Origin: Alphaproteobacteria bacterium
Lineage (GTDB): Bacteria > Pseudomonadota > Alphaproteobacteria > Rickettsiales > UBA3002
Reading direction: 5' to 3'
NCBI GenBank assembly: GCA_031402515.1
Contig: JANNSK010000114.1
Span: forward strand, 1 to 59,311
Length of the DNA: 59,311 nt
Under the pieces are notes generated by a model. It was given only the letters and a program-made list of their open reading frames with translations, had not been told where the DNA came from and searched no databases. Below are positions 38,782 through 59,311 of this stretch, in pieces; position 1 is the first letter of the stretch, and each line of letters starts with the position of its first letter. The position numbers and the translations under genes were made by a program.

Positions 38782-40194
38782 ATGAACAATCACATTTTCA
38801 ATGAAGCGCGGGCGAAAATCGAGGCGGCGACGCGGAATGATTTTCTGTTTTTCCTGCGCCGTGCAGTGAAATCAGTATCGCCCGGCGTTACCTATTTACA
38901 TAACTGGCATATCGAGGCGATCGCCGAATATCTCGCGGCGTGCGAACGTGGAGAGGTGACACGACTCATCATCAATCTGCCGCCGCGCATGCTGAAATCG
39001 ACGATGGTCTCGGTGGCGTGGCCGGCATGGCTACTGGCGCAGCGGCCGGAGGAGCGCATCATGGTGGCGAGTTACGCGCAGTCGCTTTCCATCAAGCATT
39101 CGACGGATTGCCGCGCGGTGATGATGGCGCCGTGGTACGGCCAAGCATTTCCTGACACGCAATTGTCGTATGACCAGAACGAGAAAGAAAAATTCACGAC
39201 GACCGCGCGCGGTTATCGGCTGGCGGTATCAGTCGGTGGGGCGGCTTTGGGCGAGGGCGGGAATTTCTTGATTGTCGATGACCCATTGAATCCGCTGCAG
39301 GCCAGCCATCCGACGCAGCGCGATGCGGCGAATGCGTGGTTCGACCATACATTCGCCACACGGCTGGATGATAAATACAAAGGTGCGATTATTGTGGTGA
39401 TGCAACGGCTGCATCGCGGCGATCTTGCCGGATACTTGCTGGAGAAGGGCGGATGGGAGCATCTGAACCTGCCAGCAATTGCGCCCGCGCCTACGGTGAT
39501 TCGTCTGGGCGACTTTACGCACACACGCGAAGTCGGCGAAGTGCTGCATCCGGCGCGCGAGAGCGCGGCGTTGCTCGAACGCACCAAGCGCGAACTGGGC
39601 AGCGCCAACTTCAGCGCACAGTATCAGCAGAATCCGCAGGCGACCGCGGGTGCGATTGTGCGGCCTGCATGGTTTGCTGCACGCGCGGAGGTGAGTGATG
39701 GCGCGATGTGCGTGCAGTCGTGGGATACGGGGGTTAAGGCAGGATTTCACCATGATGCGTCGGCCTGCGCGACCTTCATCGAGCGCGAGGGAAAACATTA
39801 TCTCGCCGAAATGCGCACGATGCGCATGGAATATCCGGCGTTGAAGCGCGCCATACTGGCGGCGGCGGAACGGATGAAGCCTGACGCGATTTTGATCGAG
39901 GATAAGGCGAGCGGGCAATCGTTGCTGCAGGATTTGAAATACGAGACATCGCTGCCGCTGATTGCCTGCAAGGCGACGGAGGATAAGCTATCGCGGCTGA
40001 TTCGGGTGACGCCGATGATGGAGTCGGGGCTGGTGGTGTTGCCGAATCATGCGTCGTGGCTCGCCGCATTCGAGGAGGAATTATTTGCGTTTCCTTCCGT
40101 ATCGCACGACGATCAGGTGGATGCGTTTAGTCAGTATTTGAATTGGGTGCGCGCACGGGGAGGATGGAGAAATCCATCTATTAGAAACCTTTAG
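38782..40194 (+). CDS. GTA/phage terminase large subunit (RcGTA g2-like)
   Basis: GAGGA lies 5 nt before the ATG at 38782 (alternative start 38770; the ORF-track GTG at 38722 is inside repeat B3). The NWHIEAIAEYL...LIINLPPRMLKS...LIVDDP...SWDTG...DDQVDA pattern matches terminase ATPase and nuclease motifs. Confidence 0.9.
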   Translation: MNNHIFNEARAKIEAATRNDFLFFLRRAVKSVSPGVTYLHNWHIEAIAEYLAACERGEVTRLIINLPPRMLKSTMVSVAWPAWLLAQRPEERIMVASYAQSLSIKHSTDCRAVMMAPWYGQAFPDTQLSYDQNEKEKFTTTARGYRLAVSVGGAALGEGGNFLIVDDPLNPLQASHPTQRDAANAWFDHTFATRLDDKYKGAIIVVMQRLHRGDLAGYLLEKGGWEHLNLPAIAPAPTVIRLGDFTHTREVGEVLHPARESAALLERTKRELGSANFSAQYQQNPQATAGAIVRPAWFAARAEVSDGAMCVQSWDTGVKAGFHHDASACATFIEREGKHYLAEMRTMRMEYPALKRAILAAAERMKPDAILIEDKASGQSLLQDLKYETSLPLIACKATEDKLSRLIRVTPMMESGLVVLPNHASWLAAFEEELFAFPSVSHDDQVDAFSQYLNWVRARGGWRNPSIRNL

Positions 40195-40197
40195 CCG

Positions 40198-40226
40198 TTC
40201 ACAACAATCTTCACAAAACTGTCACA
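40198..40226 (+). promoter_or_regulatory. Tandem-hexamer box TTCACAacaatcTTCACAaaactGTCACA
   Basis: Three hexamers beginning 4 nt after the terminase stop. GGTATGGT lies 14 nt downstream. Upstream of the NTPase-fusion gene. Confidence 0.6.
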
Positions 40227-40285
40227 CTTCTTTGGGAATGGGTATGGTAGGGGATGAGTATGATTCATGTTTTGAGGAGATGAGA

Positions 40286-41404
40286 ATGCCCAATATCAAC
40301 AATGTGGCCACGGACCATGTTCAGCAGCATCGTCTAAAAATTGTGGTTGGTTCGCAGAGTGAAGTGAAATTAAATGCAGTGAAGAATGCGCTGCGTGCAC
40401 TCAACGTCGATGCCGATGTGATCGGCGTGAAAGCGAAGTCAGGTATCAACGAGCAGCCTGTTGCAAACGAAACCGTCGATGGCGCAAGAAACCGCGTTGC
40501 TGATGCGCGGCGGTTATATCCTGATGCGGACATGTATATTGCTGTAGAAAATGGAATTTTTCCTAAAGCAGGAAGTTGGATTGACAAGGCAGTGATATTG
40601 GCTGTCACTCGAGGCGGCAAAGAAAGCCTCGAATACTCACAAGGCGTAGAATTCCCAAAACAGTACGTTGAGGAAGCCCATGCTCAGGGCTTTGATAAGA
40701 TCACGGTCGGTCAGGTTATGCAAAAACACGGAGCAGTGGCAAAGCACGATGATCCGCATTTAAGCCTTGCAGGTAAATCGCGCGCAACAATTATCGAGGA
40801 CACTCTTAAAGAGACGCTACCTTCTGCATTGGGACTCCATACGGTTGATAAGACCAGCACCCCCAGCATAACCAGGCCGCTTGTGCGAACCGGGATCCTC
40901 TATAATCCAGCCCAAGAAGGAAGTAGAGAAGAAGCGATTCAGGAGGGCAAAGACAGCATCTTCAGGCAGCTTAATTTCTTTAATAAGGGAATCGGGAAAA
41001 AAGATCCTTACCGCTGGCGGGCGGACATGAGCGCTCTGAAAATTACGGAAAGCGGCAATGAAAAGAAACCATCGATTCGGGTGGAAGTGGTCGCCATTAA
41101 AAGCACATCGAACTTGAAAGGGCAGGCTGCCGAACCCATCAAAGCCCTCGCCGGTGAAGCGCTCGACGATGCTTATGCAAAAAACTATAAATCGCCACCT
41201 GTCGAACGGTCCGTGCTGGATGGGCTTAAAGTGGGTGAAGTGACCGGAGGCGTGCAGCACGACGGTGATCCGAAAGCGCCATCTGCAAAAACCAGCGGTG
41301 TTCAGCCGCATGGCGAGCAGCCTACTCCCGGTGGTAAAAAACCAACGACTGAGAGCCGGGGACGCATACCAATGCGCCAGAAGCCGCTCATCCCCGGAAA
41401 GTAA
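40286..41404 (+). CDS. YjjX-like non-canonical NTPase (inosine/xanthosine triphosphatase family) fused to a basic C-terminal extension of about 190 aa
   Basis: GAGGAG lies 6 nt before the ATG at 40286. The N-terminal segment KIVVGSQSEVKLNAVKNAL...SGINEQPVANETVDGARNRVADARRLYPDADMYIAVENGIF parallels E. coli YjjX ([41 protein letters not shown]). No family recognised for the C-terminal half. Confidence 0.75.
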   Translation: MPNINNVATDHVQQHRLKIVVGSQSEVKLNAVKNALRALNVDADVIGVKAKSGINEQPVANETVDGARNRVADARRLYPDADMYIAVENGIFPKAGSWIDKAVILAVTRGGKESLEYSQGVEFPKQYVEEAHAQGFDKITVGQVMQKHGAVAKHDDPHLSLAGKSRATIIEDTLKETLPSALGLHTVDKTSTPSITRPLVRTGILYNPAQEGSREEAIQEGKDSIFRQLNFFNKGIGKKDPYRWRADMSALKITESGNEKKPSIRVEVVAIKSTSNLKGQAAEPIKALAGEALDDAYAKNYKSPPVERSVLDGLKVGEVTGGVQHDGDPKAPSAKTSGVQPHGEQPTPGGKKPTTESRGRIPMRQKPLIPGK

Positions 41405-41517: not shown

Positions 41518-41628
41518 CGTCATGCCGGGCTTGACCCGGCACCCATCTTCTTAACAATAACTACTGAGTGTGTTTTTACTCCGTTGTTTTAAGAAGAAGA
41601 TGGACTCCGGCTCAAGGCCGGAATGACG
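41518..41628. repeat. Repeat family D, copy D2
   Basis: CGTCATGCCGGGCTTGACCCGGCACCCATCTTCTT ... AAGAAGATGGACTCCGGCTCAAGGCCGGAATGACG. Confidence 0.75.
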
Positions 41629-41697
41629 ATTCCTGAGGGATCCTTCGCGTTGCTCAGGATGACAACATGCTTTCCCCCACTTAACAAACAGGTTCCT

Positions 41698-42879
41698 ATG
41701 GCACACGCATTCTCGTGGCTGCACCGCATGGCGGCGCGGCAGGTTGAAAAGAAATATTTCCCTACCACCCATGCGTTCATGATTCCGGCGGGTCAGCCGG
41801 TCTGGATGCGTCGTGAGTTCACCAAGTTCGCCGAGGAAGGCTATAAGCGCAATGTGATCGCCCATCGCTGCATCACGATGCTGGCGACCGCGGCGGCGAG
41901 TGTGCCGTGGAAATTGTCCGAGCGCAGTGCGCGTGGTGCGACAAAGTTTCTGGAAACGCATCCGTTACTTGCACTGCTTAATCATCCGAATCCGCTGCAG
42001 GGCGGCACCGAATTCTGCGAAGCGGTCTATACGCAGCGGCTGATTGCGGGTAATGCGTTTATCCATGCGGTAGGGCCAGGCGATGCGGCGCCGCTCGAAT
42101 TGCACGTGCTGCGTCCGGATCGGGTGGCGATCATTCCGGGGCAGGGCGGGATTCCGAAAGCATACCGTTATACGATTGATACGCGCAGCGTTGATATTCT
42201 GGTCGATCCCATGACCGGCATAAGCCGCGTGCTGCATCTCAAAACATTTCATCCGCTCGACGATTGGTACGGGATGTCGCCGATGGAAGCGGCGGCGTAC
42301 AGTATCGACCAGCATAACCAGTGCGGCGCGTGGAACCAGGCGTTGCTGCAGAATGGCGCGCGGCCTTCGGGCGCCTTGATGGTGAAGTCCGGCGATGGGC
42401 AGGCGGGTGCGCTGACCGAGACGCAGTATACGCGACTAAAATCACAACTCGACGAGCAATTCTCCGGCGCGATTAATGCCGGGCGGCCATTGCTGCTCGA
42501 AGGTGGGCTTGAATGGAAAGAGATGAGTTTGAGTCCGCGCGATATGGATTTTATCGGGATCAAACATGCGAGCGCGCGCGACGTGGCGCTGGCGTTCGGT
42601 GTGCCGCCGCAACTGCTCGGTATTCCCGGCGATAATACGTTCTCCAACATGCAGGAAGCGCGCCTCGCGCTGTGGGAGCAGACGATTTTGCCGTTGCTCA
42701 CCTCGGTGACGGACGCGCTCAATAACTGGCTGGTACCCATGTTCGATGGGTATTTAACGTTGACACTTGATAGTGATGCAATTCCTGTGCTGGCGGCGAA
42801 ACGCGATGCGTATTGGGACCGCATCAGCAAAACGGATTTCCTGAGTGATGATGAGAAAAGAAAGTTGCTGGGTATCTGA
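41698..42879 (+). CDS. GTA/phage portal protein, HK97 family (RcGTA g3-like)
   Basis: In-frame ATG at 41698 (MAHAFSWLHRM); the ORF-track start at 41623 lies in repeat D2. 393 aa. Portal-typical PLLALLNHPNP...GNAF...MSPMEAA...GAINAGRPLLLEGGLEWK. Confidence 0.9.
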   Translation: MAHAFSWLHRMAARQVEKKYFPTTHAFMIPAGQPVWMRREFTKFAEEGYKRNVIAHRCITMLATAAASVPWKLSERSARGATKFLETHPLLALLNHPNPLQGGTEFCEAVYTQRLIAGNAFIHAVGPGDAAPLELHVLRPDRVAIIPGQGGIPKAYRYTIDTRSVDILVDPMTGISRVLHLKTFHPLDDWYGMSPMEAAAYSIDQHNQCGAWNQALLQNGARPSGALMVKSGDGQAGALTETQYTRLKSQLDEQFSGAINAGRPLLLEGGLEWKEMSLSPRDMDFIGIKHASARDVALAFGVPPQLLGIPGDNTFSNMQEARLALWEQTILPLLTSVTDALNNWLVPMFDGYLTLTLDSDAIPVLAAKRDAYWDRISKTDFLSDDEKRKLLGI

Positions 42880-43664
42880 TGCATAACAAATCACTCGCCG
42901 TGATCTGCGATAAGAGTACGGGTGTGCTTGAGTTAAAATCGCTTTCGGCGGACGGCCGTTTCGCCGGTTATGCCAGCGTGTTCGGCATGGTTGATGCGCA
43001 GCGCGATGTGGTGCATCGCGGCGCCTTTCGTCAGAGTTTAAAAACGCGTCCGGGCCCGTTGCAGCTGTTATGGCAACACCAGTGGCATGAACCGATTGGT
43101 ATCATCGACAGGATTTTCGAGGATGCGCGCGGGCTGTATGTCGAGGGCCGCTTGCTCATGGAAGTGGCGCGGGCGCGCGAAGCGTTGGCCCTGCTAAAAT
43201 CAGGCGTGATCAGGGGACTCAGTATCGGCTACACGGTGAAAAGCTTTCGCCGGAATCCCGATTCGGGCGTGCGTGAATTGCTTGAAATCGACTTGTGGGA
43301 AGTGAGTCTGGTGACGATGCCCGCCAACGCATCTGCACAGGTGACGATGGTAAAACGCACGGATGTTTTGCCGCAGAATATCATCGCGCTCGCATGGGCG
43401 ATGCAAGGCGCAATGCCTCCGCGCCTGACGGCGATGGGATCGAAAGCCGATGGGGCGCGGCGGCAGACATGGGAGTTACTGGAGGACATTGCCAACCACT
43501 GCTTTCTCTGGCGCAAGCAGGACGTGGAGAAAAGATTGCAGCAACTTAACGCAAAAAATCTAAGCAGCCGATTCATCCAAGGCGACGGCGCCGACACGGC
43601 CGCGATGGGTGCGGTTGAAGATGACGGTCGAAACGGTCCCGCGCGGTGGAAGCAGGGGCCCTAA
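42879..43664 (+). CDS. HK97-family prohead protease (RcGTA g4-like) with an unusual C-terminal extension of about 90 aa
   Basis: TGATG overlap with the portal stop. Protease core GYASVFGMVDAQRDVV..GAF...LLWQH...PIG...GLSIGY...EVSLVTMPAN. The extension overlaps a convergent ORF by 105 nt. Confidence 0.8.
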   Translation: MHNKSLAVICDKSTGVLELKSLSADGRFAGYASVFGMVDAQRDVVHRGAFRQSLKTRPGPLQLLWQHQWHEPIGIIDRIFEDARGLYVEGRLLMEVARAREALALLKSGVIRGLSIGYTVKSFRRNPDSGVRELLEIDLWEVSLVTMPANASAQVTMVKRTDVLPQNIIALAWAMQGAMPPRLTAMGSKADGARRQTWELLEDIANHCFLWRKQDVEKRLQQLNAKNLSSRFIQGDGADTAAMGAVEDDGRNGPARWKQGP

Positions 43665-44009
43665 GGCCAGCGCATCAAGCGCGGTTTCTTTCAGGTAGAA
43701 GACATTGTTGGCCATCGCCGCGTGGCGCTTGCTTTCGTTCAAATGCTCTTCGCTGACGCGGATGATGCTTTCGAACATCTGGATCAGCTCGCGGGTGGAC
43801 AGCGATTGTACGCGCACATCCAGGCAGAGCTGCATCGCGGTCGCGGTGACGGCGGCTTGCCACTGATGGTCCGTGGTCGCCATCGGTATGCCGTGCAGAT
43901 TGAAATAGGCGCGGTGGATGAGTTCGGTAACGTGGGCCCTGAGTTCGGGATCCGCCGCGAATGACCCGCGTGGAACGTGGTGATGCTTGGCTACAGAAGA
44001 TTCGTGCAT
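43560..44009 (-). CDS. Hypothetical protein (149 aa) inserted antisense between g4 and g5
   Basis: Open frame with a plausible AT-rich promoter region upstream (44010-44240). Its 3' end overlaps the g4 tail, so either this ORF or the g4 extension may be spurious. Confidence 0.35.
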   Translation of the reverse strand: MHESSVAKHHHVPRGSFAADPELRAHVTELIHRAYFNLHGIPMATTDHQWQAAVTATAMQLCLDVRVQSLSTRELIQMFESIIRVSEEHLNESKRHAAMANNVFYLKETALDALALGPLLPPRGTVSTVIFNRTHRGRVGAVALDESAA

Positions 44010-44241: not shown

Positions 44242-45435
44242 ATGACTATTTCCGAAGTAACCGAACGCGTTCATGCATTGGGTAATGCGTGGGAGCAGCT
44301 AAAACAGGTGAATGATGCCAGGCTGAATGAAGTCGAGCATAAGGGCCATGCCGATCCGCTCTATCAGGAGCATATCCAGCGTATTAACGAGGCAATGGAT
44401 CAGCATGCCCGCCGCATGGACAAGATCGAAACCGTGCAGGGCCGACCGGCGCGTGAGATGAAAGCCCCGCTGATGGGCGCCGATGCATCCGAATACAAAA
44501 CGGCGTTTCGTAACTATCTGCGCAAAGGTATGGATGCAGGGCTGGAGCAGATCCAGCTGAAATCGCTCTCCGTCGGCACCGATGCCGATGGCGGATACTT
44601 TGTCACGCCGCAAATGGCGCAGACGATCGTGCAGATTGTCCATGAGTCGTCGCCATTGCGTGCGCTGGCTTCGGTTGAGACCATCTCCAGCGATTCACTC
44701 GATCTCATTGAGGATACGAACGATATGAGTGCTGCCTGGGTGGCCGAGACGGATGACCGTACCGACACCAATACCGCACAGATCAACAAGAACAGTATCG
44801 ACGCGTTCGAGATGTATGCGCAGCCGAAGGCGACGCAGAAACTCATCGATGACGCATCGATCGATATCGAGCAGTGGGTGGCGCAGAAAGTCGCCGACAG
44901 ATTCGCACGTCTGGAAGCGACCGCCTTCGTCAGCGGTAACGGCACCAGCCAACCGAAAGGTATCTTAAGCTACGCGGCGGGTACCAGCTTCGGCCAGATT
45001 GAGCAGATCAACTCCGGCACCAGTGCCGTGGTCACTGCCGATGGCCTCATCAAGCTCTATTACGGGCTGAAGGATGCCTATGCCAAGCGGGCGACGTTCC
45101 TGATGCATCGCACCACTGTGCAGGCGGTGCGATTGCTGAAAGAAGCGACGACCAACCAGTATCTCTGGCAACCCGGCCTTGCTGCCGGCACGCCCGATAC
45201 GCTGCTCGGCGTACCGGTCGCACTCGCCGCAGATATCCCCGTTCCGGCAGCGGATTCACTGTCGGTCGTGGTTGCCGATTTCAAACGCGCGTATTTGATT
45301 GTCGACCGCATCGGCGTGCGTATTCTGCGCGATCCGTTTACCGCCAAGCCGTTCGTGAAGTTCTACACGACGAAACGTGTTGGCGGTGAAGTGGTCAATA
45401 CGGAAGCCATCAAGCTGATGAAGCTGGCGGTTTAG
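44242..45435 (+). CDS. HK97-family major capsid protein (RcGTA g5-like)
   Basis: 397 aa. An N-terminal delta-like coiled region, then DADGGYFVTPQ...AWVAE...QKLIDD...LEATAFVSGNGTSQPKGIL, typical of the family. Confidence 0.9.
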   Translation: MTISEVTERVHALGNAWEQLKQVNDARLNEVEHKGHADPLYQEHIQRINEAMDQHARRMDKIETVQGRPAREMKAPLMGADASEYKTAFRNYLRKGMDAGLEQIQLKSLSVGTDADGGYFVTPQMAQTIVQIVHESSPLRALASVETISSDSLDLIEDTNDMSAAWVAETDDRTDTNTAQINKNSIDAFEMYAQPKATQKLIDDASIDIEQWVAQKVADRFARLEATAFVSGNGTSQPKGILSYAAGTSFGQIEQINSGTSAVVTADGLIKLYYGLKDAYAKRATFLMHRTTVQAVRLLKEATTNQYLWQPGLAAGTPDTLLGVPVALAADIPVPAADSLSVVVADFKRAYLIVDRIGVRILRDPFTAKPFVKFYTTKRVGGEVVNTEAIKLMKLAV

Positions 45436-45739: not shown

Positions 45740-46081
45740 GTGAGCGACTTAAGCCGTTCGGATAAAATTCTGGCAGAGAAGACTGTCTGCGTACTGCTCG
45801 TGCGCGGCGAGGATCCCGACGGCAAGCCTATCTATGCCTATGTCGGCGTGCGTGCTGATAAGCTTGAGGAGTTCATGAAGGCGCAGGAGCAGGGGTTATT
45901 TTATCCCGAAGAGTTCGGCGTTGTGATTGAATCCGGCACGGGCGAGCCTCCGGCGGAAGTGCGCGTCAAAATGGAACGCGACTACGGATTTAACCATGAA
46001 GGTATGCTCGATATTCCTGACGCGCAGAACGCCACCAAGATTGCAGCGGAGCTCAGCCGCAAGGCGAATGATAAGGATTAG
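45740..46081 (+). CDS. Small hypothetical protein (113 aa), paralogue of 38368-38640, inserted between g5 and g6
   Basis: GTG at 45740 is preceded by GTGAGG and aligns N-terminally with the paralogue. Shared pattern ...G.P/W.YAYV/YYFV...F.K......EDFG/EEFG.V..S..GE.P.E....... (D/K)YGF/KFGF. A TTGACG-N17-TATCCT promoter-like element lies at 45691-45719. Confidence 0.6.
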   Translation: MSDLSRSDKILAEKTVCVLLVRGEDPDGKPIYAYVGVRADKLEEFMKAQEQGLFYPEEFGVVIESGTGEPPAEVRVKMERDYGFNHEGMLDIPDAQNATKIAAELSRKANDKD

Positions 46082-46110
46082 TTGTTGGTTGCTGGTTGTT
46101 GGTTGTTAGG
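46082..46110. repeat. 7-nt word repeats (TTGTTGG TTGCTGG TTGTTGG TTGTTAG) abutting a stop codon
   Basis: Starts right after the TAG at 46079-46081. A different word array (CTAGCAA CTAGCAC TAGCGAC TAGCAC TAGCAC) lies at 46256-46293 on the other side of repeat A4. Confidence 0.6.
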
Positions 46111-46115
46111 AAGAT

Positions 46116-46250
46116 GCCCTCACCCGAAATCGCCAGAGCGATTTCGCCCTCTCCCAAGGGAGAGGTAAACAAGTGGCACATCCTCTCCCCACGGCCACCT
46201 CTCCCTTGGGAGAGGTCGAAAATCATCCTTCATGATTTTCGGGTGAGGGC
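46116..46250. repeat. Repeat family A, copy A4
   Basis: Canonical arms and inner hairpins, further extended by AGGAAGAT / ATCTTCCT. Confidence 0.85.
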
Positions 46251-46433
46251 ATCTTCCTAGCAACTAGCACTAGCGACTAGCACTAGCACTCATCTTATGA
46301 CCCTCCATCTCTACCGTCCCGTACGCTGGTGGCGGCAGGGGGCAATGCTGCTTGATGCAGGGACCCATCACAATCTAACGCCGGAAGACGAAGCGCTGCT
46401 CATCGCGCTCCGCCTGGCTACGAAAATTCCACC

Positions 46434-46548
46434 CGTCATTCCAGCGCAAGCTGGAATCCACCTTCTTTTTAAAAAAGAAAGATGGATTCCCGATGAAGAC
46501 TTGCAACCAAACGCGATGCGTTTGGGCAAGCCTAGCTCGGGAATGACG
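46434..46548. repeat. Repeat family D, copy D3
   Basis: CGTCATTCCAGCGCAAGCTGGAATCCACCTTCTTT...GCCTAGCTCGGGAATGACG. The ORF track translates it as the spurious N-terminus of g6 (VIPAQAGIH). Confidence 0.75.
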
Positions 46549-46581
46549 ATTCCCTTTTGCTTCCCTTTTTGCGGAGAAACC

Positions 46582-47130: not shown

Positions 47131-47153
47131 TGCTAAGGCCATCCTTTCTTTAA

Positions 47154-47299
47154 CTCCCCCCTTGAGGGGGAGTCGGCGTGCCACTTAAGCGCGCCGGTGG
47201 GGGGGGGTGGGCCGTGAAGGGTACCCCCCACGGAACTCGCTGCGCTTTGCTTGCGAGTTCCCGCTCCCCCTCAAGGGGGGAGCTGGCACCGAGCAAGCG
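47154..47299. repeat. Repeat family B, copy B4
   Basis: Same hairpin pair and core as B1 and B2. Lies between g6 and g7. Confidence 0.85.
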
Positions 47300-50480: not shown

Positions 50481-50488
50481 GATTTTTA

Positions 50489-50634: not shown

Positions 50635-50642
50635 CCAAAACC

Positions 50643-50659
50643 TTCACGCAATTGTCACA
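50643..50659 (+). promoter_or_regulatory. Tandem-hexamer box TTCACGcaattGTCACA
   Basis: Followed 18 nt later by GCTATAAT (50678-50685). ATG at 50708. Confidence 0.6.
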
Positions 50660-50707
50660 CTTTTCAGCGCTTTTTCAGCTATAATTTAGGGTGAAGGATA
50701 GTGTCTG

Positions 50708-51982: not shown

Positions 51983-52009
51983 GGAATTCAGCGTGTTCAT
52001 AAGTGGAAT

Positions 52010-52026
52010 GTCACACAATCTTCACA
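52010..52026 (+). promoter_or_regulatory. Tandem-hexamer box GTCACAcaatcTTCACA
   Basis: Identical 17-mer to the first two hexamers of the box at 16393. GGTACTCT lies 19 nt downstream. ATG at 52071. Confidence 0.6.
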
Positions 52027-52070
52027 CTAAAAACCCCCGATTTTTGGTACTCTAGAGGCTGGAGTACTCT

Positions 52071-53825
52071 ATGGACCAACAAGGTTTTACAGCAGGAGGC
52101 GTTGGCAGCGTCAGCGAGCCATTGGCCGCTATACCGCGCATGCCCGTTGTGCGCACGGCGAGTAAGACGCCCGTCAAAACGAATGGAACGGGTAAGCCGC
52201 AGGCAGGGATGCCGCCGGTCAATACTGGCAGTACACCGACGATTGGATTTCTCAATAGCTTCAAAAATGCGACCGAACCAATGTGGCTTGTACAGTTTTT
52301 AGGTCTCTTGATGATACCGGTCGCGTGGAGTTTAGATCGTGTCGGGTTAAAAAGCGCGGCCAATGGATTACGCGGTTGGATCATCGCGCCGACCAATGCG
52401 TTGATGAATACCCGCGTCAGGGATGGATTCCATCTGCGTGCCAATGCGGTGGATGAAGCAGCCAAAATCATGCGTAATGTTGGCGGCGATACGGCCACAA
52501 AAGCTTCAGCGTTGGAAACACGATCGGTCGTCCTGCACGGAGCAGCGGCGGAGAGCGGAAAAAAATGGAGCACGTGGTTTGAACCAGCGCGCAAATGGTT
52601 CGGCGATGCGATTGACAATTTCAGCAAAAGTGGTTTTGGAAAATGGGTCGAAGCGCGGGTGAAGGGATTCACCGATTGGCGCATTAACCGTCATGGGCCG
52701 AAAGTTGGCGGCGCTATCGATATGGCGATTGATAGTATCAAGGCTTCCCCGACCGATGTGCAGGCGAAACTTGCGGGCGTACTCACGGATCTGCAGGCGG
52801 CCAAAGGTTTGACGGGCACTACACAAGCGGCCGCACTGGCGAAAGCGGAAGGCCAGATTGGACATATCGTAAAGGGTGTAGAAGGCGCGGGCGCGCAAGC
52901 TGTGCATACGGTCGGTGATCTGGTGAAGACAGCGAAATGGTCGGCGGAAACGCTGGTGAGTCATACGACGGCTGCTGCATCAGGGTTGCGGGCGATGACG
53001 AAGAATCTGCTGCGCAGCGCAGGCAATATCCCGATTTTCTTTGCGGTGGTTGGTGCCGGTGCATTGGCGGGTGCAGCAATGTATGGTCTGAAAGCGCGCC
53101 AAGATAATAAGATCGCGCGCCAAAGCCTCAAAGATATGGCGGCGGATATTGGCGATGCAAAGCATCCGATGATGATTGCGGCATCCAAGATGGCAAAGAA
53201 ACAAAGCAGCGGTCGTTGGATGAGTGCTGGCCTGACGGGCGTTGGGGAAGGCCTCGTGGCCACGCCGATGGGGATGGGGGTAGGGCCGGGGGCAGGCAAG
53301 ATGGGAATGATCGCGTTGGGTGCGGGTTTCCTGCCGAATCTTAGCCAATTACTGGTTCCGGAGAATCATTTGCTCAACGCCTATGCGACGTTGAAGCAAA
53401 ACGAACAGGGGAAAATTACTCTGCCGCCGGAACATAAAATCGACATGGTGCGCCATCTGGTCGCGGCGGTGCCAGCGGTGAATAAGCAGGGCGGCGTGGA
53501 TAATAGATTGTCGCGACCCATCGCAACGGAAATTGTGAAGCGCAATCTGTCGGTGAAGCAAACATTGCAGCTTCTGGCTAATCCGGAGCAGTTCACCGCG
53601 CTCACGAGCGAAGTCGCTGCGGCGCAGAAAAAGATTATCGAGGAAGCTGCCGCGCAGAAAAAAGCCAATGAAGAAACCGCAACACAAAAGCCGGGTGAGG
53701 TGGCAGCGACGCCGCCTGTTCCGGCGAAGCCAAAAACGGAGACGCCATCGCTGACGATTAATGCTGCAACCACCAGCAACGAAGGTCGCCTCGCTGACAT
53801 CCAGCGCGCGATGGGGCAGGTGTAG
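52071..53825 (+). CDS. Hypothetical protein (584 aa) with internal glycine-rich hydrophobic segments
   Basis: GGAG lies 6 nt before the ATG. Hydrophobic segments NIPIFFAVVGAGALAGAAMYGL and GLVATPMGMGVGPGAGKMGMIALGAGFL. Repeated AAQKK motif near the C-terminus. Confidence 0.7.
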   Translation: MDQQGFTAGGVGSVSEPLAAIPRMPVVRTASKTPVKTNGTGKPQAGMPPVNTGSTPTIGFLNSFKNATEPMWLVQFLGLLMIPVAWSLDRVGLKSAANGLRGWIIAPTNALMNTRVRDGFHLRANAVDEAAKIMRNVGGDTATKASALETRSVVLHGAAAESGKKWSTWFEPARKWFGDAIDNFSKSGFGKWVEARVKGFTDWRINRHGPKVGGAIDMAIDSIKASPTDVQAKLAGVLTDLQAAKGLTGTTQAAALAKAEGQIGHIVKGVEGAGAQAVHTVGDLVKTAKWSAETLVSHTTAAASGLRAMTKNLLRSAGNIPIFFAVVGAGALAGAAMYGLKARQDNKIARQSLKDMAADIGDAKHPMMIAASKMAKKQSSGRWMSAGLTGVGEGLVATPMGMGVGPGAGKMGMIALGAGFLPNLSQLLVPENHLLNAYATLKQNEQGKITLPPEHKIDMVRHLVAAVPAVNKQGGVDNRLSRPIATEIVKRNLSVKQTLQLLANPEQFTALTSEVAAAQKKIIEEAAAQKKANEETATQKPGEVAATPPVPAKPKTETPSLTINAATTSNEGRLADIQRAMGQV

Positions 53826-53826
53826 T

Positions 53827-54687
53827 ATGGCAGGAACTCCCAGAGTTGCACCAACACCCATAACGCGAAAAGTCAGCGGTTTTAGTAATACGTTATTCTG
53901 GGGATCGATCGGTGTAGCAATTGCGATCCCGATTTTTGGACCAATGCTTTCGCACTTCGTCGATCGTTGGCGCAATCGGCATGATACGAATAATGAACTG
54001 AGAACGCGTGCTGACTGGTATCGGTTTCAGGTGGCCAAGCAGCTTGGGATGAATCCGGCGGATGTGACGCAACGCGATTTGCTGCGCGCGGCGGAACTCA
54101 ATCCGCAACTCGCGCGGTCGGTGAAGGAAGTGTATAATAAAGAGGGCGACAATAACCGCTTCTCGCTGCTGACGATGGCGGGTGCAAGCTTAGTGCCTGT
54201 TGCCGGCGGCGGAATCAAAGCGATGGCGATGACGATGGGCGGTGCGATTGGCGGCGGAACGCTGGCGTCGTTGATGACGAAGTCGCGCGTTGATCCGCAG
54301 GATGTGATTGAGGTGATTAACGCGCAGGTGATGGCCGGACGTGGCGCGCGTAATGCAGTGTCGCCGCAGCTGGTATTCATGCTGCGTGTGGCGCAGAATG
54401 ATGCGTTGGGAAAACAGATTTCACAGATGTATGGCAAGGCGTTTCATACAATGACGGAGGCTGAACAAACGGGCGTGATGCAGGCCTATCCTCAGCTTGC
54501 CAGTGCCTGTGCCTCGGAAGCCTATGCGGTATCGACCGGCGTCATGCAGGTGCAGGAGCTGATGGCGGCGCCGCCGAATATGAACAGTATGGCGGCGAGA
54601 TATGCGCCGTCGCCGCGCAGTCAGTCGTTCGTGGCGCAGCTTGAAACCGACCGTGCCAAGCAGGTGGCGAATACGCCAAGCGTTTAG
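53827..54687 (+). CDS. Hypothetical protein (286 aa) with bilobed hydrophobic segments
   Basis: The ATG lies 1 nt after the upstream stop, suggesting an operon. Hydrophobic segments LFWGSIGVAIAIPIFGPML and LLTMAGASLVPVAGGGIKAMAMTMGGAIGGGTLASLM. Confidence 0.65.
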   Translation: MAGTPRVAPTPITRKVSGFSNTLFWGSIGVAIAIPIFGPMLSHFVDRWRNRHDTNNELRTRADWYRFQVAKQLGMNPADVTQRDLLRAAELNPQLARSVKEVYNKEGDNNRFSLLTMAGASLVPVAGGGIKAMAMTMGGAIGGGTLASLMTKSRVDPQDVIEVINAQVMAGRGARNAVSPQLVFMLRVAQNDALGKQISQMYGKAFHTMTEAEQTGVMQAYPQLASACASEAYAVSTGVMQVQELMAAPPNMNSMAARYAPSPRSQSFVAQLETDRAKQVANTPSV

Positions 54688-54763
54688 TTGCTGGTTGTTA
54701 GTTGTTGGTTGTTAGTCGCACCTCCAATTAACCAACAACTAACAACCAGCAACCAACAACGCA
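54688..54763. terminator. Hairpin with a 24-bp perfect stem made of 7-nt words (GTTGCTG GTTGTTA GTTGTTG GTT / inverted)
   Basis: Starts at the first base after the TAG at 54685-54687. Loop about 13 nt. The ORF track translates it as a false N-terminus of g12. Confidence 0.7.
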
Positions 54764-54795: not shown

Positions 54796-55395
54796 ATGGG
54801 ATTTGTCGAGGACAGATTTCCTTCCGATATCAGCTATGGATCATCAGGCGGGCCTGAATATGCGACGGATGTTGTGATCAGCGGCAGCGGCCACGAGCAG
54901 CGCAACATCAACTGGAGTCAGGCGCGGGCACGGTACAATGTTGCGCATGGGGTGAAAACGAAAGCGCAGCTTGATGCGCTCATCGCGTTTTTCCGTGCGC
55001 GCAAAGGCCGCGCCTACGGATTTCGCTTCAAGGACTGGACGGATTTCAGAGCGACTGACGCGGTCATTGGCACGGGTAACGGCAGCGCCACGCAATTTCA
55101 GCTGGTGAAAAAATATACGAGCGGCGGGGTAGATGAATCGCGCATGATTACCAAACCAGTGGTCGGTACGGTGAAGATTTACAAGGACGCCGTGCTGCAA
55201 TCGAGCGGGGTGAGTGTATCGACCACAACCGGTGTGGTGACATTGGGCGTAGGGCCCGCCAATGGCGTCGTCATCACCGCCGATTTCGAGTTCGATGTGC
55301 CGGTCCGCTTCGATACCGACCGTTTATCGGCAACGCTTGACGCGTATGGCGTCCATTCGTGGCAGGATATCCCACTGATTGAGGTGCGTATATAA
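54796..55395 (+). CDS. DUF2460/TIGR02217-type GTA protein (RcGTA g12-like)
   Basis: In-frame ATG at 54796. MGFVEDRFPSDISYGSSGGPEY....V...SG.EQRN..WS.AR..Y......K....L..L..FF.AR.GR..GFRFKDW.D is characteristic. Confidence 0.85.
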   Translation: MGFVEDRFPSDISYGSSGGPEYATDVVISGSGHEQRNINWSQARARYNVAHGVKTKAQLDALIAFFRARKGRAYGFRFKDWTDFRATDAVIGTGNGSATQFQLVKKYTSGGVDESRMITKPVVGTVKIYKDAVLQSSGVSVSTTTGVVTLGVGPANGVVITADFEFDVPVRFDTDRLSATLDAYGVHSWQDIPLIEVRI

Positions 55396-55412: not shown

Positions 55413-55551
55413 GCCCTCTCCCAAAATTCGCTAAGAGGCGAATTTTGACCTCTCCCGGTGGGAGAGGTGGCCGTGAGGCGAGGCCCTAGCCTCTTGCTTA
55501 CCTCTCCCATCGGGAGAGGTCAAAATCCGTCTTCGGATTTTGGGTGAGGGC
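55413..55551. repeat. Repeat family A, copy A5 (degenerate left arm)
   Basis: Inner hairpins ACCTCTCCCGGTGGGAGAGGT and ACCTCTCCCATCGGGAGAGGT. The right arm GGGTGAGGGC is intact. Confidence 0.8.
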
Positions 55552-55607
55552 AACCTGACGGGATTTACGAACAATGCTCACTGTCGGGCAAGAAAATCGG
55601 AGTTTCC

Positions 55608-56459
55608 ATGCAGTCTATATCTGAATCACTGGCAACGCACCTCAATCAAGAAGTGACGACACTGGCGACATGCTGGAAAATCATGCGTGCGGATGGTGTG
55701 GCCTATTATTATACCGATCATGATCGCGACCTGGTGATTGAGGGTGACAGCTATAAAGCGGCGAGTTTGATGAGCCCGTCGGCGGTGACGTCGCAGCTTA
55801 ATCTGGCGACGGATAATCTGGAGCTTGAAGGGATGCTGACGGATGATGGCTTGGGCGAGGATGATATTCTTAGCGGCAAATTCGATCACGCCAGGATCAC
55901 GATTTTCATCGTCAATTATGCGGATATTGTTGCCGGGAAACTCGCACTCAAGCATGGGTTGCTTGGCGAAGTGAGTTTAAAGAACGGCATGTTCGTCGCC
56001 GAGATTAGGGGGCTTTCCTCGGTGCTGCAACAAACCATCGGTGAAGTATATACGCCGAGCTGCCGCGCCAAATTGGGTGATGGGCGTTGCGGCGTGGGTC
56101 TCGCATCTTTTACCGTGAGCGGCACCATTACGGCGGTGGAAGGTGCCCATGCGTTTAGCGATTCAGCGCGCATGGAGGATCATCATTACTTTGCCTATGG
56201 GATTATTTCCTTCACCAGCGGTGACAATACGGGGTTGAGCATGGAGATCCGTGAGTTTTTCTCCAGCCGATTTAGTCTGTTCCTACCCATGCCGCATGCG
56301 GTGCAAGTGGGTGATGCCTATACGGCAGTTGCTGGATGCGACAAGCGTTTTGACACATGTATCGCGCGGTTTTCCAATGCGATAAATTTCCGTGGCGAAC
56401 CGCACGTTCCCGGCACGGATAAGATGATGCAGACGGCGGCAACGCGCACGGACTTCTAA
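55608..56459 (+). CDS. DUF2163 plus BR0599-type GTA protein (RcGTA g13-like)
   Basis: 283 aa. TLATCWKIMRADGVAYYYTDHDRDLVIEGDSYKA and the C-terminal GCDKRFDTCIARFSNAINFRGEPHVPG are signature-like. Confidence 0.85.
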   Translation: MQSISESLATHLNQEVTTLATCWKIMRADGVAYYYTDHDRDLVIEGDSYKAASLMSPSAVTSQLNLATDNLELEGMLTDDGLGEDDILSGKFDHARITIFIVNYADIVAGKLALKHGLLGEVSLKNGMFVAEIRGLSSVLQQTIGEVYTPSCRAKLGDGRCGVGLASFTVSGTITAVEGAHAFSDSARMEDHHYFAYGIISFTSGDNTGLSMEIREFFSSRFSLFLPMPHAVQVGDAYTAVAGCDKRFDTCIARFSNAINFRGEPHVPGTDKMMQTAATRTDF

Positions 56460-56683: not shown

Positions 56684-57103
56684 ATGAGCGGTTTTGATAA
56701 CAAGCAACGTAAACGCAGCCCTGAGGGGTTGCCCTCGCCAGAGGTATTGGAGGCGTATGATGCGGTGCTTGCCGGTTCGGCGACGCGGATTATCGATATG
56801 TTCGAACGCGAGCAGGCGCATCGCCATACGTGGGAACATCGCGCCTTGCGTATTCATCAGGTTTCGACGGTGCTCGGACAGTTTCTGGGATTCATGATCG
56901 CGGTGGCGATTTTTGTGTCGGCTACCATTATCGGTATGTCAGGCAATGCGAGCGTTGCCGCTTTCATCTGGGTGTTCGGTATGGCGATTGTCACCATGGC
57001 GGCGGTCATCTGGTGGTATGCAAAAAGTCTTGGCCAGCGGCCGTTATTCGCCCGGCCTGCGATGCGTAGTTCGTTCCGGCCGGAAAAAGAATCCAACGAA
57101 TAG
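56684..57103 (+). CDS. DUF2335-like membrane protein inserted between g13 and g14
   Basis: 139 aa. LPSPEVLEAYDAVLAGSATRIIDMFEREQAHRHTWEH followed by two transmembrane helices matches my memory of DUF2335. Confidence 0.6.
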   Translation: MSGFDNKQRKRSPEGLPSPEVLEAYDAVLAGSATRIIDMFEREQAHRHTWEHRALRIHQVSTVLGQFLGFMIAVAIFVSATIIGMSGNASVAAFIWVFGMAIVTMAAVIWWYAKSLGQRPLFARPAMRSSFRPEKESNE

Positions 57104-57127: not shown

Positions 57128-57574
57128 ATGACAACTCCGCACGACATCGTCGCGATTGCGCGCGGGCTGGTTGGCGTGCGGTTCGCGCATCAGGGACGCT
57201 GTCCTGACCAAGGGCTTGATTGTTTGGGATTCCTGTTGGCAGTGGCGCGCCAAGCGAAATTGATGCTGCGCGGGGTGTATCCGGAAACCTATGACCGTCG
57301 CGACTATGGCGCGCGGCCGGATACGGAATTTCTAGAGTGCCGGTTGAAGACATTGCTGACGCCAGTGACGCATATGGGCGTTGCCGATATTTTATTGCTG
57401 CGGGTGGATGGCCGCGCGCAGCATCTGGCCATGGTCAGCGACTATCCGGAGCCTGACGCATGGGGCATCATTCATGCCTACGCGCCCGCGCGAAAAGTGG
57501 TTGAACATCGGCTGGATAGGTGGTGGCAGTCGGCGATTGCCGGAATTTACCGATTGCCTTGTGTATTAGAATGA
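57128..57574 (+). CDS. NlpC/P60-family phage cell-wall peptidase (RcGTA g14-like)
   Basis: 148 aa. IARGLVGVRFAHQGRCPDQGLDCLGFLL (catalytic Cys context) and a later HLAMV..., as in the TIGR02219-type family. Confidence 0.85.
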   Translation: MTTPHDIVAIARGLVGVRFAHQGRCPDQGLDCLGFLLAVARQAKLMLRGVYPETYDRRDYGARPDTEFLECRLKTLLTPVTHMGVADILLLRVDGRAQHLAMVSDYPEPDAWGIIHAYAPARKVVEHRLDRWWQSAIAGIYRLPCVLE

Positions 57575-57865
57575 GAATGACAGGCGCGGACCGACGAACC
57601 AGTTATGTTTTGAGGTGCGGGACACGGTCATGCGCGACGATACGTTGTTATGCTCGGCAATCGGTGCGCCGAGTTCGTAGCCGTTTTCCATGCGGGTGAG
57701 TTTTACCCGGTAGGGATCTTTGGCTTCGTCGTAATCGAAAGAGAAGAACATGACCGTTTCGCCTTCACGCGCATGCGTTTTGATGCGGGAATAATCCATG
57801 GTATTATTACTACCGCAAGCGGTGAGCATCACCAGTACGCAGCTCAGTGTAAGGGCTCTTACCAT
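57566..57865 (-). CDS. Small lipoprotein (99 aa) inserted antisense between g14 and g15
   Basis: In-frame ATG at 57865 gives MVRALTLSCVLVMLTAC (lipobox). It has its own tandem-hexamer box and GCTATACT upstream. It overlaps the g14 3' end by 9 nt. Confidence 0.6.
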   Translation of the reverse strand: MVRALTLSCVLVMLTACGSNNTMDYSRIKTHAREGETVMFFSFDYDEAKDPYRVKLTRMENGYELGAPIAEHNNVSSRMTVSRTSKHNWFVGPRLSFSF

Positions 57866-57897
57866 AGGTGAAGTATAGCAGATTTTTGGGCAAATAA

Positions 57898-57914
57898 CGT
57901 TACGATTGTGTGAC
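57898..57914 (-). promoter_or_regulatory. Tandem-hexamer box GTCACAcaatcGTAACG (read on the minus strand)
   Basis: Followed 18 nt later by GCTATACT. About 33 nt upstream of the start at 57865. Confidence 0.55.
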
Positions 57915-57979
57915 ATTTCCCGCACTGCAACCGGCACCCATTGTGCCATCATGCAACGCAATAAACAGGAGCAGTCCGG

Positions 57980-59311
57980 ATGGCATCTATCGTTCTGACC
58001 ACGATTGGTCGTGCCGTAGGGACCGCCAGCGGTATCCCTTTCGGAGGGCAAATTGGCTCGATAATCGGAGGGCTTGCGGGGGCCGCACTCAGCGGCACAT
58101 CCAAGCGCCACTACGAGGGGGCACGGCTCGAGGAGCTGGCGGTGCAGACCTCGACCTACGGGCGGATGATACCCATCGTGTTCGGCTCGGTACGGATTGC
58201 CGGGAACGTCATCTGGTCGCAGCCGATCAAAGAGGTGGGAAAAACGACCAAAACCAGTAGCGGCGGCAAGGGCGGTGGAACGACTAAAAGCAGCAGTACG
58301 AGCACGGAATATCGTTATTTCGTGACGCTGGCGATTGCCATTTGCGAAGGCGAGATTAGCAAAATAAACCGTGTCTGGGCCGATGCCAAGCTACTCGATT
58401 TAAGCCAGGGCACGTATCGGATGTATAAGGGCAGCGAAACGCAGGTTCCCGACACGCTGATCGAGAGTTACGAAGGGGTGGGGGCGACCCCCGCCTATCG
58501 CGGCACGGCCTATATCGTGATCGAAGATTTCCCGCTCGCCGATTTTGGCAATCGCATTCCGAATTTCACCTTCGAGGTGACGCGTCAGTTATCGCAGACG
58601 GATGCGGATGCGCAGTCGGTCGAGGAAGCGGTGACGTCGGTGATGATGATTCCGGGTTCGGGCGAGTTCGTCTACGACACCGAAGCCCAGTATAAAGTCA
58701 ACGGGCAGACCGTCAGCGGCAATGTCACGCAGGGTGGCTACCGGGCCGCGCTCAACCAGCACAACGCCGATGGCAAGGCCAATACGCTGGTGGCGCTCGA
58801 CCAGTTGCAACTGACATTTCCCAATCTCGCATGGGTGGGGATTGCGGTGAACTGGTTCGGCACCACGATGGATATCGCGACGTGCGACATTTGGCCTTCG
58901 GTGGAGTATCAGGCGAATACGACAACGACGCCGGATGTGTGGGGTGTGGCGGGGTATAATACGCGGGCGACAGCGCACCAGATAGGCAACGATAGTGGAA
59001 AATTGCGTTACGGCGGCACACCGGATGACGGGAGTATTGTGCGCCTGCTCGACGAACTGCAGGACCGTGACCTTAAAGTGTTTTTCTATCCGCAGCTGCT
59101 GATGGATGTGGCGGGCAAACCGTGGCGCGGGCATCTCACCGGATCGCCTGCGAACGTGAGTAGCTTCTTCAGTAAAACGCACGGGTATAACGCATTCATC
59201 CTGCATTACGCGAATCTCGTCGCGGGCAAGGTGGATGCGTTTGCTATCGGCACCGAGTTGCGCGACCTCACCAAAATTACCAGTTCAACCGGCGTGTTTC
59301 CGGTGGTTTCG
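57980..59311 (+). CDS. GTA host-specificity / TIM-barrel-like tail protein (RcGTA g15-like), 5' partial, runs off the window
   Basis: Not in the ORF track because it has no stop. Hand translation from the ATG at 57980: MASIVLTTIGRAVGTASGIPFGGQIGSIIGGLAGAALSG...YGRMIPIVFGSVRIAGNVIWSQPI...EYRYFVTLAIAICEGEI...RVWADAKLLDL...YRGTAYIVIEDFPLADFGNRIPNFTFEV. Open for all 444 codons. Confidence 0.9.
   Translation, partial: MASIVLTTIGRAVGTASGIPFGGQIGSIIGGLAGAALSGTSKRHYEGARLEELAVQTSTYGRMIPIVFGSVRIAGNVIWSQPIKEVGKTTKTSSGGKGGGTTKSSSTSTEYRYFVTLAIAICEGEISKINRVWADAKLLDLSQGTYRMYKGSETQVPDTLIESYEGVGATPAYRGTAYIVIEDFPLADFGNRIPNFTFEVTRQLSQTDADAQSVEEAVTSVMMIPGSGEFVYDTEAQYKVNGQTVSGNVTQGGYRAALNQHNADGKANTLVALDQLQLTFPNLAWVGIAVNWFGTTMDIATCDIWPSVEYQANTTTTPDVWGVAGYNTRATAHQIGNDSGKLRYGGTPDDGSIVRLLDELQDRDLKVFFYPQLLMDVAGKPWRGHLTGSPANVSSFFSKTHGYNAFILHYANLVAGKVDAFAIGTELRDLTKITSSTGVFPVVS

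Follow-up and report, generated by a model that had tools for sequence, protein, structure and literature searches.

A reduced, probably inherited gene transfer agent locus with mostly old interleaved genes in a Rickettsiales contig

The window analysed here is a single 59.3-kb contig (59,311 nucleotides, 55.5% GC; JANNSK010000114.1 of assembly GCA_031402515.1) from an alphaproteobacterium of the Rickettsiales, and all results on gene absence hold for this one contig. Its last 20.5 kb carry 11 homologues of genes of the Rhodobacter capsulatus gene transfer agent (RcGTA), g2-g8 and g12-g15, on the plus strand and in canonical order. Shakya et al. 2017 (PMC5721377) define a large cluster as one region with at least nine RcGTA homologues, and the 11 genes found here constitute such a cluster. 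The locus is probably an inherited, vertically transmitted gene transfer agent (GTA) locus of the reduced Rickettsiales type from a lineage near Candidatus Mitibacteraceae, devoid of the tail tube and interleaved with other genes, most of them old residents.

The identities of the GTA genes were established by Pfam, NCBIfam and PDB profile comparisons, which bore out the first-pass annotation of the region as an RcGTA-type cluster running from g2 to g8 and then from g12 to g15. The large terminase gene g2 (38782-40194) is unsplit, matches Terminase_6C and TIGR01630 and is 62-70% identical to its relatives over almost the full length. The head genes that follow encode the portal (g3, 41623-42879; PF04860, E = 8e-85), the HK97 prohead protease (g4, 42879-43664; PF04586 and TIGR01543) and the HK97-type major capsid protein (g5, 44242-45435; PF05065, E = 5e-82). 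The capsid protein has 3994 homologues, the best of which are 70-82% identical and come from uncultured metagenome-assembled genomes (MAGs). The head-tail connector (g6, 46297-47130) matches TIGR02215 on amino acids (aa) 104-260, behind a conserved N-terminal extension, and is followed by the head completion protein, or stopper (g7, 47341-47667; PF05521), and the tail terminator (g8, 47664-48068; PF11367), which also matches the RcGTA terminator Rcc01690 (6tba_4A, E = 4e-5). The distal tail protein (g12, 54796-55395) matches PF09343 and TIGR02217 (E = 4e-69), and the baseplate hub (g13, 55608-56459) matches PF09931, PF09356, TIGR02218 and the RcGTA hub (6tba_7A, E = 1.6e-47). The NlpC/P60-like peptidase (g14, 57128-57574) is divergent, with a match to TIGR02219 below the cut-off (E = 1e-9, 38.9 bits), a match to phrog_329 and a DCLG cysteine motif visible in the sequence. 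The contig end cuts the megatron gene (g15, 57980-59311), of which the first 444 aa match profile positions 1-480 of 1299 in NF048004 (E = 1e-138) as well as GTA_TIM. None of the open reading frames (ORFs) upstream of g2 has a family match to the small terminase g1; a conserved 112-aa ORF at 37105-37443 (+), itself without a family match, is a g1 candidate by position only.

The cluster had been described as intact gene by gene, which is true in that all 11 GTA ORFs are open and no frameshift was found in them. However, g4 reads through the usual stop, g6 carries an insertion, one of the interleaved genes (gapD, see below) is shortened and g9-g11 are absent. The alignment places the C-terminal read-through of g4 at ~43440-43664, ~75 aa beyond the stop used by 13 relatives. 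In g6, an alignment with six relatives shows that an in-frame palindromic element at 46436-46549 adds 41 aa to the N-terminal extension and contains no stop codon. The overlapping gene boundaries TGATG (42877-42881) and ATGA (47664-47667) are real, as had been proposed.

Relatives comprised 71 loci from a genome scan and 11 from look-ups and a metagenome scan (numbered with the prefix L); the metagenome scan was queried with g13 and returned eight loci, all short. The proteins of the window were placed on all relatives' loci by tblastn, and conserved ORFs were clustered separately as well (clusters with the prefix c). With the genes of relatives and the canonical genes of L049 as queries, no similarity to g9, g10 or g10.1 was found anywhere in the 59-kb window. 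Nothing similar to g11 was found in the window, no good g11 profile could be built, and cluster c73 proved to be the g10.1 frame and not g11. The complete tail module of an RcGTA-type cluster (g9, g10/g10.1 and g11) is thus missing from the contig.

With canonical g9 (Phage_tail_2) from a Hyphomicrobiales locus as the query, g9 was found directly after g8 in 20 loci of the clade, within 9-32 bp in 18 of them. It is absent from the window and from 14 further independent loci whose sequence extends far enough downstream, including the closest relatives L072, L073/74 and L001, and the window has the microsatellites (AGCCRAC)~14 and (CCAA)~16 at the position of g9 in relatives (48068-48257). The loci without g9 are scattered on the capsid neighbour-joining tree, implying several independent losses. 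Three outer loci alone keep the g10 gene with its frameshift extension (g10/g10.1). The tail tube, chaperone and tape measure appear to have been lost here, and the chaperone and the tape measure appear to be absent clade-wide, a loss that was missed when the gap between g8 and g12 was taken as an insertion site. In more distant loci, g8 abuts g12 (L042) or g6 abuts g12 (L037 and L044). The g9-g11 stretch is gone from L042 (4700-10201) and the g7/g8-g11 stretch from L037 (11370-15012) and L044 (11361-15164), with no island of other genes in place.

Six junctions of the window cluster (g2|g3, g4|g5, g5|g6, g8|g12, g13|g14 and g14|g15) are occupied by other genes, exactly as first listed, and these junction genes are real. 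In five of the six, relatives have orthologous genes in the same place and on the same strand, indicating a clade-wide inherited state rather than a colonisation of this genome. The order and strands, including those of the junction genes anti149, sm125, gapA/B and gapD/E/F described below, recur in the closest relatives, L072-74, whose capsid proteins are 81-82% identical to that of the window, and both also recur in many genome loci with capsid identities down to ~60%. The upstream flank is syntenic too (Flp pilins, c16, c19, c24 and c26), and LepA and capsid identities rank the relatives similarly. The closest GTDB representative, L001, is the MAG UBA6189, with a capsid protein 77% identical to that of the window and sister to it on the capsid tree. 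A Micavibrio-like host was considered and rejected, since no Micavibrio was among the matches and this closest representative is assigned to Mitibacteraceae. No integrase or replication genes were found in the 20 kb upstream of the cluster, and family scans found no integrase, repressor, replication or lysis genes on the contig.

The g2|g3 junction holds an NTPase_I-T (YjjX-like) fusion gene (40232-41404, +; PF01931 on aa 40-165) that is lineage-specific, with no orthologue in any related locus. The content of this junction varies by lineage, and relatives have other small genes there (c36, c29 and c69). A 149-aa antisense ORF in g4|g5, anti149 (43560-44009, -), has orthologues in the same place and on the same strand in 18 genome loci and in L072-74 (47-56% identical), with a pN/pS (nonsynonymous to synonymous differences) of 0.42-0.47 and no family match in Pfam, NCBIfam or PHROG. 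The 113-aa small protein sm125 in g5|g6 (45740-46081, +) is conserved between capsid and connector. It has 973 homologues and follows g5 in 39 loci at 53-86% identity, which exceeds that of g6, g7 and g8 (g8, 26-59%). Fold searches of PDB and BFVD with the AlphaFold2 model of sm125 (mean predicted local distance difference test score, 72) gave nothing significant, a PDB sequence-profile search returned compositional matches to designed helical proteins only, and a Pfam scan of 25 members of its family gave weak KTSC matches only. A paralogue of ~90 aa (subfamily B; 38368-38640, -), recognised by its alignment with sm125, lies divergently from g2 and is found in the same place in L001, L004-6, L010, L012, L014, L016 and L027.

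The g13|g14 junction holds a DUF2335 membrane protein with two transmembrane (TM) segments (56684-57103, +; PF10097). Its orthologues in the same junction of L061 (81% identical) and of L075, L077 and L079 (69-72%) accompany g13 and g14 that are only 55-59% identical, and it is absent from g13|g14 in L076, L081 and L082. DUF2335 and sm125 are therefore better conserved than the adjoining GTA genes. The g14|g15 junction encodes, by its sequence, a 99-aa lipoprotein with the lipobox LTAC (57566-57865, -), for which a single orthologue in the same place was found, a weak one in L077 (33%); it is absent in L079.

The g8|g12 junction holds an island of six genes (gapA-gapF, 48258-54687). The first two are the membrane-anchored protein gapA (48258-48929, -; a 29-member cluster, TM segment at aa 59-77) and the exported protein gapB (48796-49296, -; 25 members), with an N-terminal hydrophobic segment and a SUEL-lectin match (PF02140, E = 1e-4) below the cut-off; the lectin signal is also faint in the gapB orthologues of L073/74. 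The variable gene gapC (49397-50422, -) has a cluster of three members, from the window, L001 and L027. On the other strand, gapD (50708-51982, +; 27 members) encodes a helical protein that is conserved across the clade and C-terminally shortened in the window, where the last ~180 aligned residues of the orthologues are missing. It is followed by gapE (52071-53825, +; 13 members), an alanine-rich helical protein with two hydrophobic TM segments, and by gapF (53827-54687, +; 12 members, 26-53% identity in an alignment), a membrane protein with a TM segment directly upstream of g12. The order and strands of gapA, gapB, gapD, gapE and gapF are constant in all members of their clusters. No match to gapD, gapE or gapF was found in Pfam, NCBIfam or PHROG, and PDB profile searches with the three returned no RcGTA chain, only compositional matches to designed helical proteins. 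In hhalign comparisons of 20 locus-derived families, no gap family was linked to g10/g10.1; the C-terminal half of gapE is homologous to the outer-clade family c34 (93%, E = 3.5e-7), and c67 was joined to c44 and c63 to c96.

Across all junctions, the family matches in Pfam, NCBIfam and PHROG are limited to NTPase_I-T, DUF2335 and the sub-threshold SUEL-lectin of gapB. A TM or signal segment is present in 7 of the 11 intercalated proteins and in 0 of the 6 GTA proteins checked. The G+C content at third codon positions (GC3) is 0.50 in the NTPase fusion and 0.51 in gapC and ranges from 0.60 to 0.74 in the other genes, so that these two are the sole compositional outliers. The NTPase fusion and gapC appear to have been acquired recently, and the lipoprotein is perhaps a recent arrival.

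Comparisons with the two closest relatives gave a proportion of synonymous differences (pS) of ~0.7. Synonymous divergence (dS) is thus saturated, and its ratio to nonsynonymous divergence (dN/dS) is only indicative. The dN is 0.10-0.16 for g3, g5, g6, g12 and sm125 (g3 against L072/L073, 0.10-0.17; g12, 0.13-0.15; sm125, 0.10-0.13), 0.24-0.43 for g4, g7 and g8 (g7 and g8, 0.25-0.43) and 0.40-0.65 for the island genes, whose pN is still well below pS. Since the dN and pN values lie below the saturated pS, all these genes behave as coding sequences in their evolution, with the head and baseplate genes apparently under tight constraint. Relaxed selection, one of the options of the first-pass annotation, is at odds with a dN of 0.10-0.16 for g3, g5, g6 and g12 at saturated dS. 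Faster evolution of g8 after the loss of g9 was considered and rejected: the g8/capsid distance ratio was 2.1 vs. 1.8, but g3 and sm125 shift similarly, indicating no relaxation specific to g8.

Repeat elements, said at first to sit in nearly every junction, are indeed present but occupy ~8 of the ~17 junctions of the region, and the same families occur over the whole contig. They comprise GCTCCCCCTCAAGGGGGGAGC-type hairpins, inverted pairs of the whalefall-1 type, a CGTCATTCC...GGAATGACG palindrome, and heptamer and tetramer microsatellites. Between sm125 and g6 (46081-46290) lie (GTTGTTG)n, an inverted whalefall-1-type palindrome pair and (CTAGCA)n. An element of the GCTCCCCCTCAAGGGGGGAGC family resembling repetitive extragenic palindromes (REPs) lies between g6 and g7 (47148-47298), inverted heptamer tandems (TTAGTTG/AACCAAC) are found at 54684-54760, and a whalefall-1-type palindrome pair separates g12 from g13 (55436-55558). 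In L072 and many relatives, g6 and g7 share 4 nt, and in L072-74 g12 abuts or overlaps g13; in the window, both pairs are separated by repeat-filled gaps of ~210 bp. Inverted pairs of the Rfam motif whalefall-1 (RF01762) are intergenic at 1106-1239, 8830-8966 and 46116-46250, and the motif was not found in the GTA loci of seven relatives. The junction repeats would thus be genome-wide REP-like elements specific to this lineage and laid over the locus later. Further copies of whalefall-1 lie at 25987-26058 and 55436-55558, some of them sub-threshold, and this 'sRNA' motif behaves here like a palindromic repeat of the REP or miniature inverted-repeat transposable element (MITE) type. A second copy of the CGTCATTCC...GGAATGACG palindrome lies at 3964-4079. 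The in-frame palindrome in g6 recalls the Rickettsia palindromic elements. Presumably, the likeness to these and to REP elements lies in short multicopy intergenic palindromes with one in-frame coding copy (in g6 of the window), whereas the sequence families differ and one family of the window is whalefall-1 (RF01762).

The five tandem-repeat boxes reported in the cluster exist and exceed chance expectation. Their consensus, TGTCACA-N4-CTTCACA, is a direct repeat of heptamers that contain TCACA and are spaced by one helical turn, and either half-site may come first. When one mismatch is allowed, 11 sites occur on the contig vs. 2.6 expected, and when three mismatches to a longer pattern are allowed, 16 occur vs. 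3.2 expected; no shuffle reached either count. A motif scan places a box of three TCACA units 11-12 bp apart in g2|g3 (40199-40226, +). A divergent control region between gapC and gapD (50464-50659) consists of a box at 50464-50481 (-), a REP pair at 50482-50631 and a box at 50644-50659 (+), and its boxes are found at orthologous sites in L001, L005, L007, L009 and L027. A perfect box lies upstream of gapE (52009-52026, +) and a degenerate one with three mismatches upstream of the lipoprotein gene (57898-57915, -). Sites that deviate at no more than one position are intergenic and oriented to the downstream gene, and the majority lie outside the cluster.

A perfect box precedes gapE by 22-48 bp in seven of 44 related loci and precedes gapD in three. 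The boxes of relatives are also found upstream of gapC-type minus-strand genes (in divergent arrangement), c15 and the repeats-in-toxin (RTX) gene, and in none of the 44 loci was a box found upstream of a canonical GTA gene. The spread of the boxes outside the cluster and their conservation before island genes, and never before GTA genes, indicate a chromosomal regulon rather than a feature of the GTA. In view of the TM and signal bias and the boxes, the island appears to encode envelope proteins that are regulated in the manner of host genes. The boxes have the properties of response-regulator sites (repeats one helical turn apart, promoter-proximal and kept at orthologous promoters) and are probably read by a predicted winged-helix response regulator; no regulator gene was identified on the contig. 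As a lead, their form resembles that of OmpR/PhoB-type sites. Like the Pho box, they have two 7-nt direct repeats, a 4-nt A-rich spacer, an 11-bp period and a position just upstream of the start, whereas the genes behind them are mostly hypothetical genes of envelope or RTX type, with no recognisable phosphate-scavenging genes. Sigma-70 promoter and intrinsic terminator scans did not rise above shuffled expectation. Further boxes in the window lie at 4105, 16392, 19228, 22485/22496, 31707 and 34701, and the genes behind boxes encode the RTX protein, a peptidoglycan-binding protein and several hypothetical proteins.

On these grounds, the locus would have kept its head, neck and baseplate genes together while the tube, chaperone and tape measure were lost, and three layers of material would lie between the remaining genes. 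The oldest layer would consist of clade-wide residents, namely sm125 and its paralogue, anti149, gapA/B, gapD/E/F and DUF2335, co-inherited since before the sampled relatives diverged. A second layer would comprise a few recent arrivals at variable spots (the NTPase fusion, gapC and perhaps the lipoprotein), and a third the lineage-specific REP-like palindromes and microsatellites that enlarged the junctions. The island genes would most likely be transcribed separately, from the box of a chromosome-wide regulon, and the GTA genes without one. In this scheme, the identities of the genes, their conservation and position among relatives, the loss of g9, the constraint on the sequences and the conservation of the box are observed, whereas we infer the regulator, the separate transcription of the island, the architecture of a particle and any production of particles.

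Several observations weigh against the inherited, tubeless locus as reconstructed here. The saturation of dS leaves dN/dS values as rough upper-bound indications. Erosion is suggested by the read-through of g4, by the shortening of gapD, by the REPs that now separate genes once coupled and by a large terminase gene (TerL) in two pieces in five relatives (L001, L004, L010, L016 and L073). In L025, gapD lies directly after g10/g10.1, the usual position of the tape measure, so a portion of the island may derive from a tail gene that has diverged. Pfam, NCBIfam, PHROG, PDB and fold scans assigned no function to the conserved junction genes. The family assignment depends on a single named relative (UBA6189, capsid 77% identical), and as the window is one contig, the rest of the genome could contain g1 and g9-g11.

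The locus shares with RcGTA (Bárdy et al. 2020, PMC7296036; PDB 6tba and 6teh) the order of g2-g8 and g12-g15 on one strand, a chromosomal position with conserved flanks and vertical inheritance, and freedom from an integrase or replication module. Direct matches to RcGTA chains exist for g13 (hub) and g8 (terminator) of the window, which also shares the families of the megatron, the distal tail protein and the hub. In comparison with RcGTA, the window lacks g9, g10/g10.1, g11 and a recognisable g1, ~12 non-GTA genes are interleaved, and only two of the usual overlapping gene boundaries are left. Its capsid protein is only ~35-45% identical to those of Hyphomicrobiales-type clusters. According to George et al. 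2022 (PMC9254644), Rickettsiales and Holosporaceae keep the capsid and portal genes, and Rickettsiales also keep distal tail, hub and megatron genes; the retained set is under purifying selection and transcribed, and tube genes are absent. The window has this retained gene set (head, portal, distal tail, hub and megatron, with the tube missing) and a purifying selection that is stronger on head than on tail genes, g12 excepted. However, the GTA genes of Rickettsiales and Holosporaceae are scattered in small clusters of reduced endosymbiont genomes, whereas the window has 11 genes in one locus of a free-living-looking genome with 55% GC, g7 and g8 are kept, and g9 is still present in many close relatives. 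In Orientia tsutsugamushi, the six GTA genes kept are spread over several regions, and host genes between GTA genes have been depicted (Giengkam et al. 2023, PMC10732058). In the survey by Shakya et al. 2017, large clusters were confined to Clade 1, and the clusters of Rickettsiales and other deep lineages had five genes at most. Tail loss and host genes among GTA genes are thus already described for Rickettsiales (PMC9254644, PMC10732058); what is new here is the presence of 11 GTA genes in a single locus with close relatives that still have the tube gene. In Schön et al., UBA6189 belongs to Candidatus Mitibacteraceae, the deepest Rickettsiales family, apparently free-living and with larger genomes and higher GC, and their text does not mention GTAs or phages. 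In the literature searched, GTAs appear in connection with Mitibacteraceae only in a passing citation.

It is doubtful, yet possible, that the locus, in this lineage and in its relatives, is a working intermediate between the compact GTA found in free-living Alphaproteobacteria and the scattered remnants (head and baseplate) of classical Rickettsiales. It would then produce a tubeless, short-tailed particle, with sm125, its paralogue, anti149 and DUF2335 as parts or regulators and a separately regulated envelope island in place of the tail-length module. A decaying relic that makes no particle, its head genes serving an unrelated role or not yet decayed, is unlikely. The absence of g9, g10 and g11 with a patchy loss of g9 in the clade, the split TerL of the same five relatives, the lost g4 stop, the shortened gapD and the broken translational coupling at g6|g7 and g12|g13 would all be expected of it. 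However, all 11 GTA ORFs are open, the portal, capsid, connector and g12 have a dN of 0.10-0.16 at saturated synonymous sites, g8 shows no acceleration of its own where g9 is missing, and the same gene set is transcribed and under purifying selection in classical Rickettsiales (PMC9254644). A defective prophage in place of a GTA-type element seems extremely improbable: all structural genes are of the HK97/siphovirus type, but the contig shows no integrase, repressor, replication or lysis genes, the flanks are conserved among relatives, the GTA-specific families TIGR02217, TIGR02218 and NF048004 are present, divergence parallels that of LepA, and a search of viral contigs for DUF2335 gave 0 matches.

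The first-pass annotation had proposed a moron-like colonisation of the six junctions, under relaxed selection or with newly co-opted cargo. Morons are typically patchy and compositionally foreign and often encode envelope proteins. The window shares with prophage morons the extra genes between structural genes, several with a promoter-like box of their own and many encoding envelope-type proteins; the NTPase fusion and gapC combine few or no orthologues with a deviant GC3, and the content of g2|g3 differs between relatives. However, only these two genes are both patchy and foreign in composition. The synteny of the other insertions, at five of six junctions and in relatives with capsid identities of 60-82%, the native composition of the shared genes, the conservation of sm125 and DUF2335 beyond that of their GTA neighbours and the strong constraint on the structural genes make a recent colonisation very unlikely. 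To call the conserved junction genes accessory is fair, whereas newly acquired describes two or three genes only. We also consider it improbable that gapD, gapE and gapF are a diverged, expanded or split tape measure or tail-assembly module. This idea draws on the position of gapD directly after g9, g10 and g10.1 in L025, on the long, helical and fast-evolving nature of the three proteins, on the glycine-rich hydrophobic segments in gapE and gapF and on the constant abutment of gapF to g12. It is opposed by the lack of any match to an RcGTA chain in PDB or to Pfam, NCBIfam or PHROG families, by the lack of an hhalign link to g10 and by the conserved boxes of gapD and gapE, which otherwise precede RTX and other host genes. 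Moreover, gapD-F are kept and constrained in 15 independent tubeless loci, and their summed length of >1,300 aa is far above that of an RcGTA-size tail.

Published surveys place large clusters in the Rhizobiales-Rhodobacterales-Caulobacterales-Sphingomonadales clade only and small scattered sets in Rickettsiales. An 11-gene cluster in a basal Rickettsiales lineage of the free-living type bears on when the RcGTA type arose and how it was dismantled. If the locus is a working intermediate, a large GTA cluster at the base of the Rickettsiales would move the origin of the RcGTA type outside Clade 1, and the tube would have been lost many times in parallel. The relatives with and without the tube gene form a natural series on a head and baseplate lacking a tube, and sm125 and DUF2335 are nominated as candidate GTA-associated factors in Rickettsiales. 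For annotation, a synteny check should precede calling genes interleaved in a GTA cluster morons.

In the relatives with a split TerL (for example, L001 4033-7000 and L073 1487-4974), the split is at ~aa 318/333, between the ATPase and nuclease halves. In three of the five, the two halves are separated by an antisense gene that encodes 500-666 aa and matches no Pfam family; either a mobile gene with site specificity or a terminase in two pieces could account for the split. Four tandem Flp/Fap pilin genes (34818-35696, -) and four genes at 35967-38220 are conserved across relatives on the upstream side of the GTA locus. An RTX calcium-binding repeat protein (30535-31614, -) with 10 HemolysinCabind stretches and a box upstream has orthologues near the GTA locus in several relatives. 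A STAND/AAA_16-type NTPase gene (15047-16252, -) lies in a low-GC stretch (44-48% vs. 55%) and is possibly a recently acquired defence-type gene. A 1283-aa ORF at 4804-8655 (+) has a weak InPase (inorganic pyrophosphatase) match only and a degenerate box upstream. At the start of the contig, a long imperfect GCA/GCC-rich triplet repeat (23-262, periods 9-21 nt) probably represents repetitive coding sequence rich in Ala and Ser that the contig end truncates.

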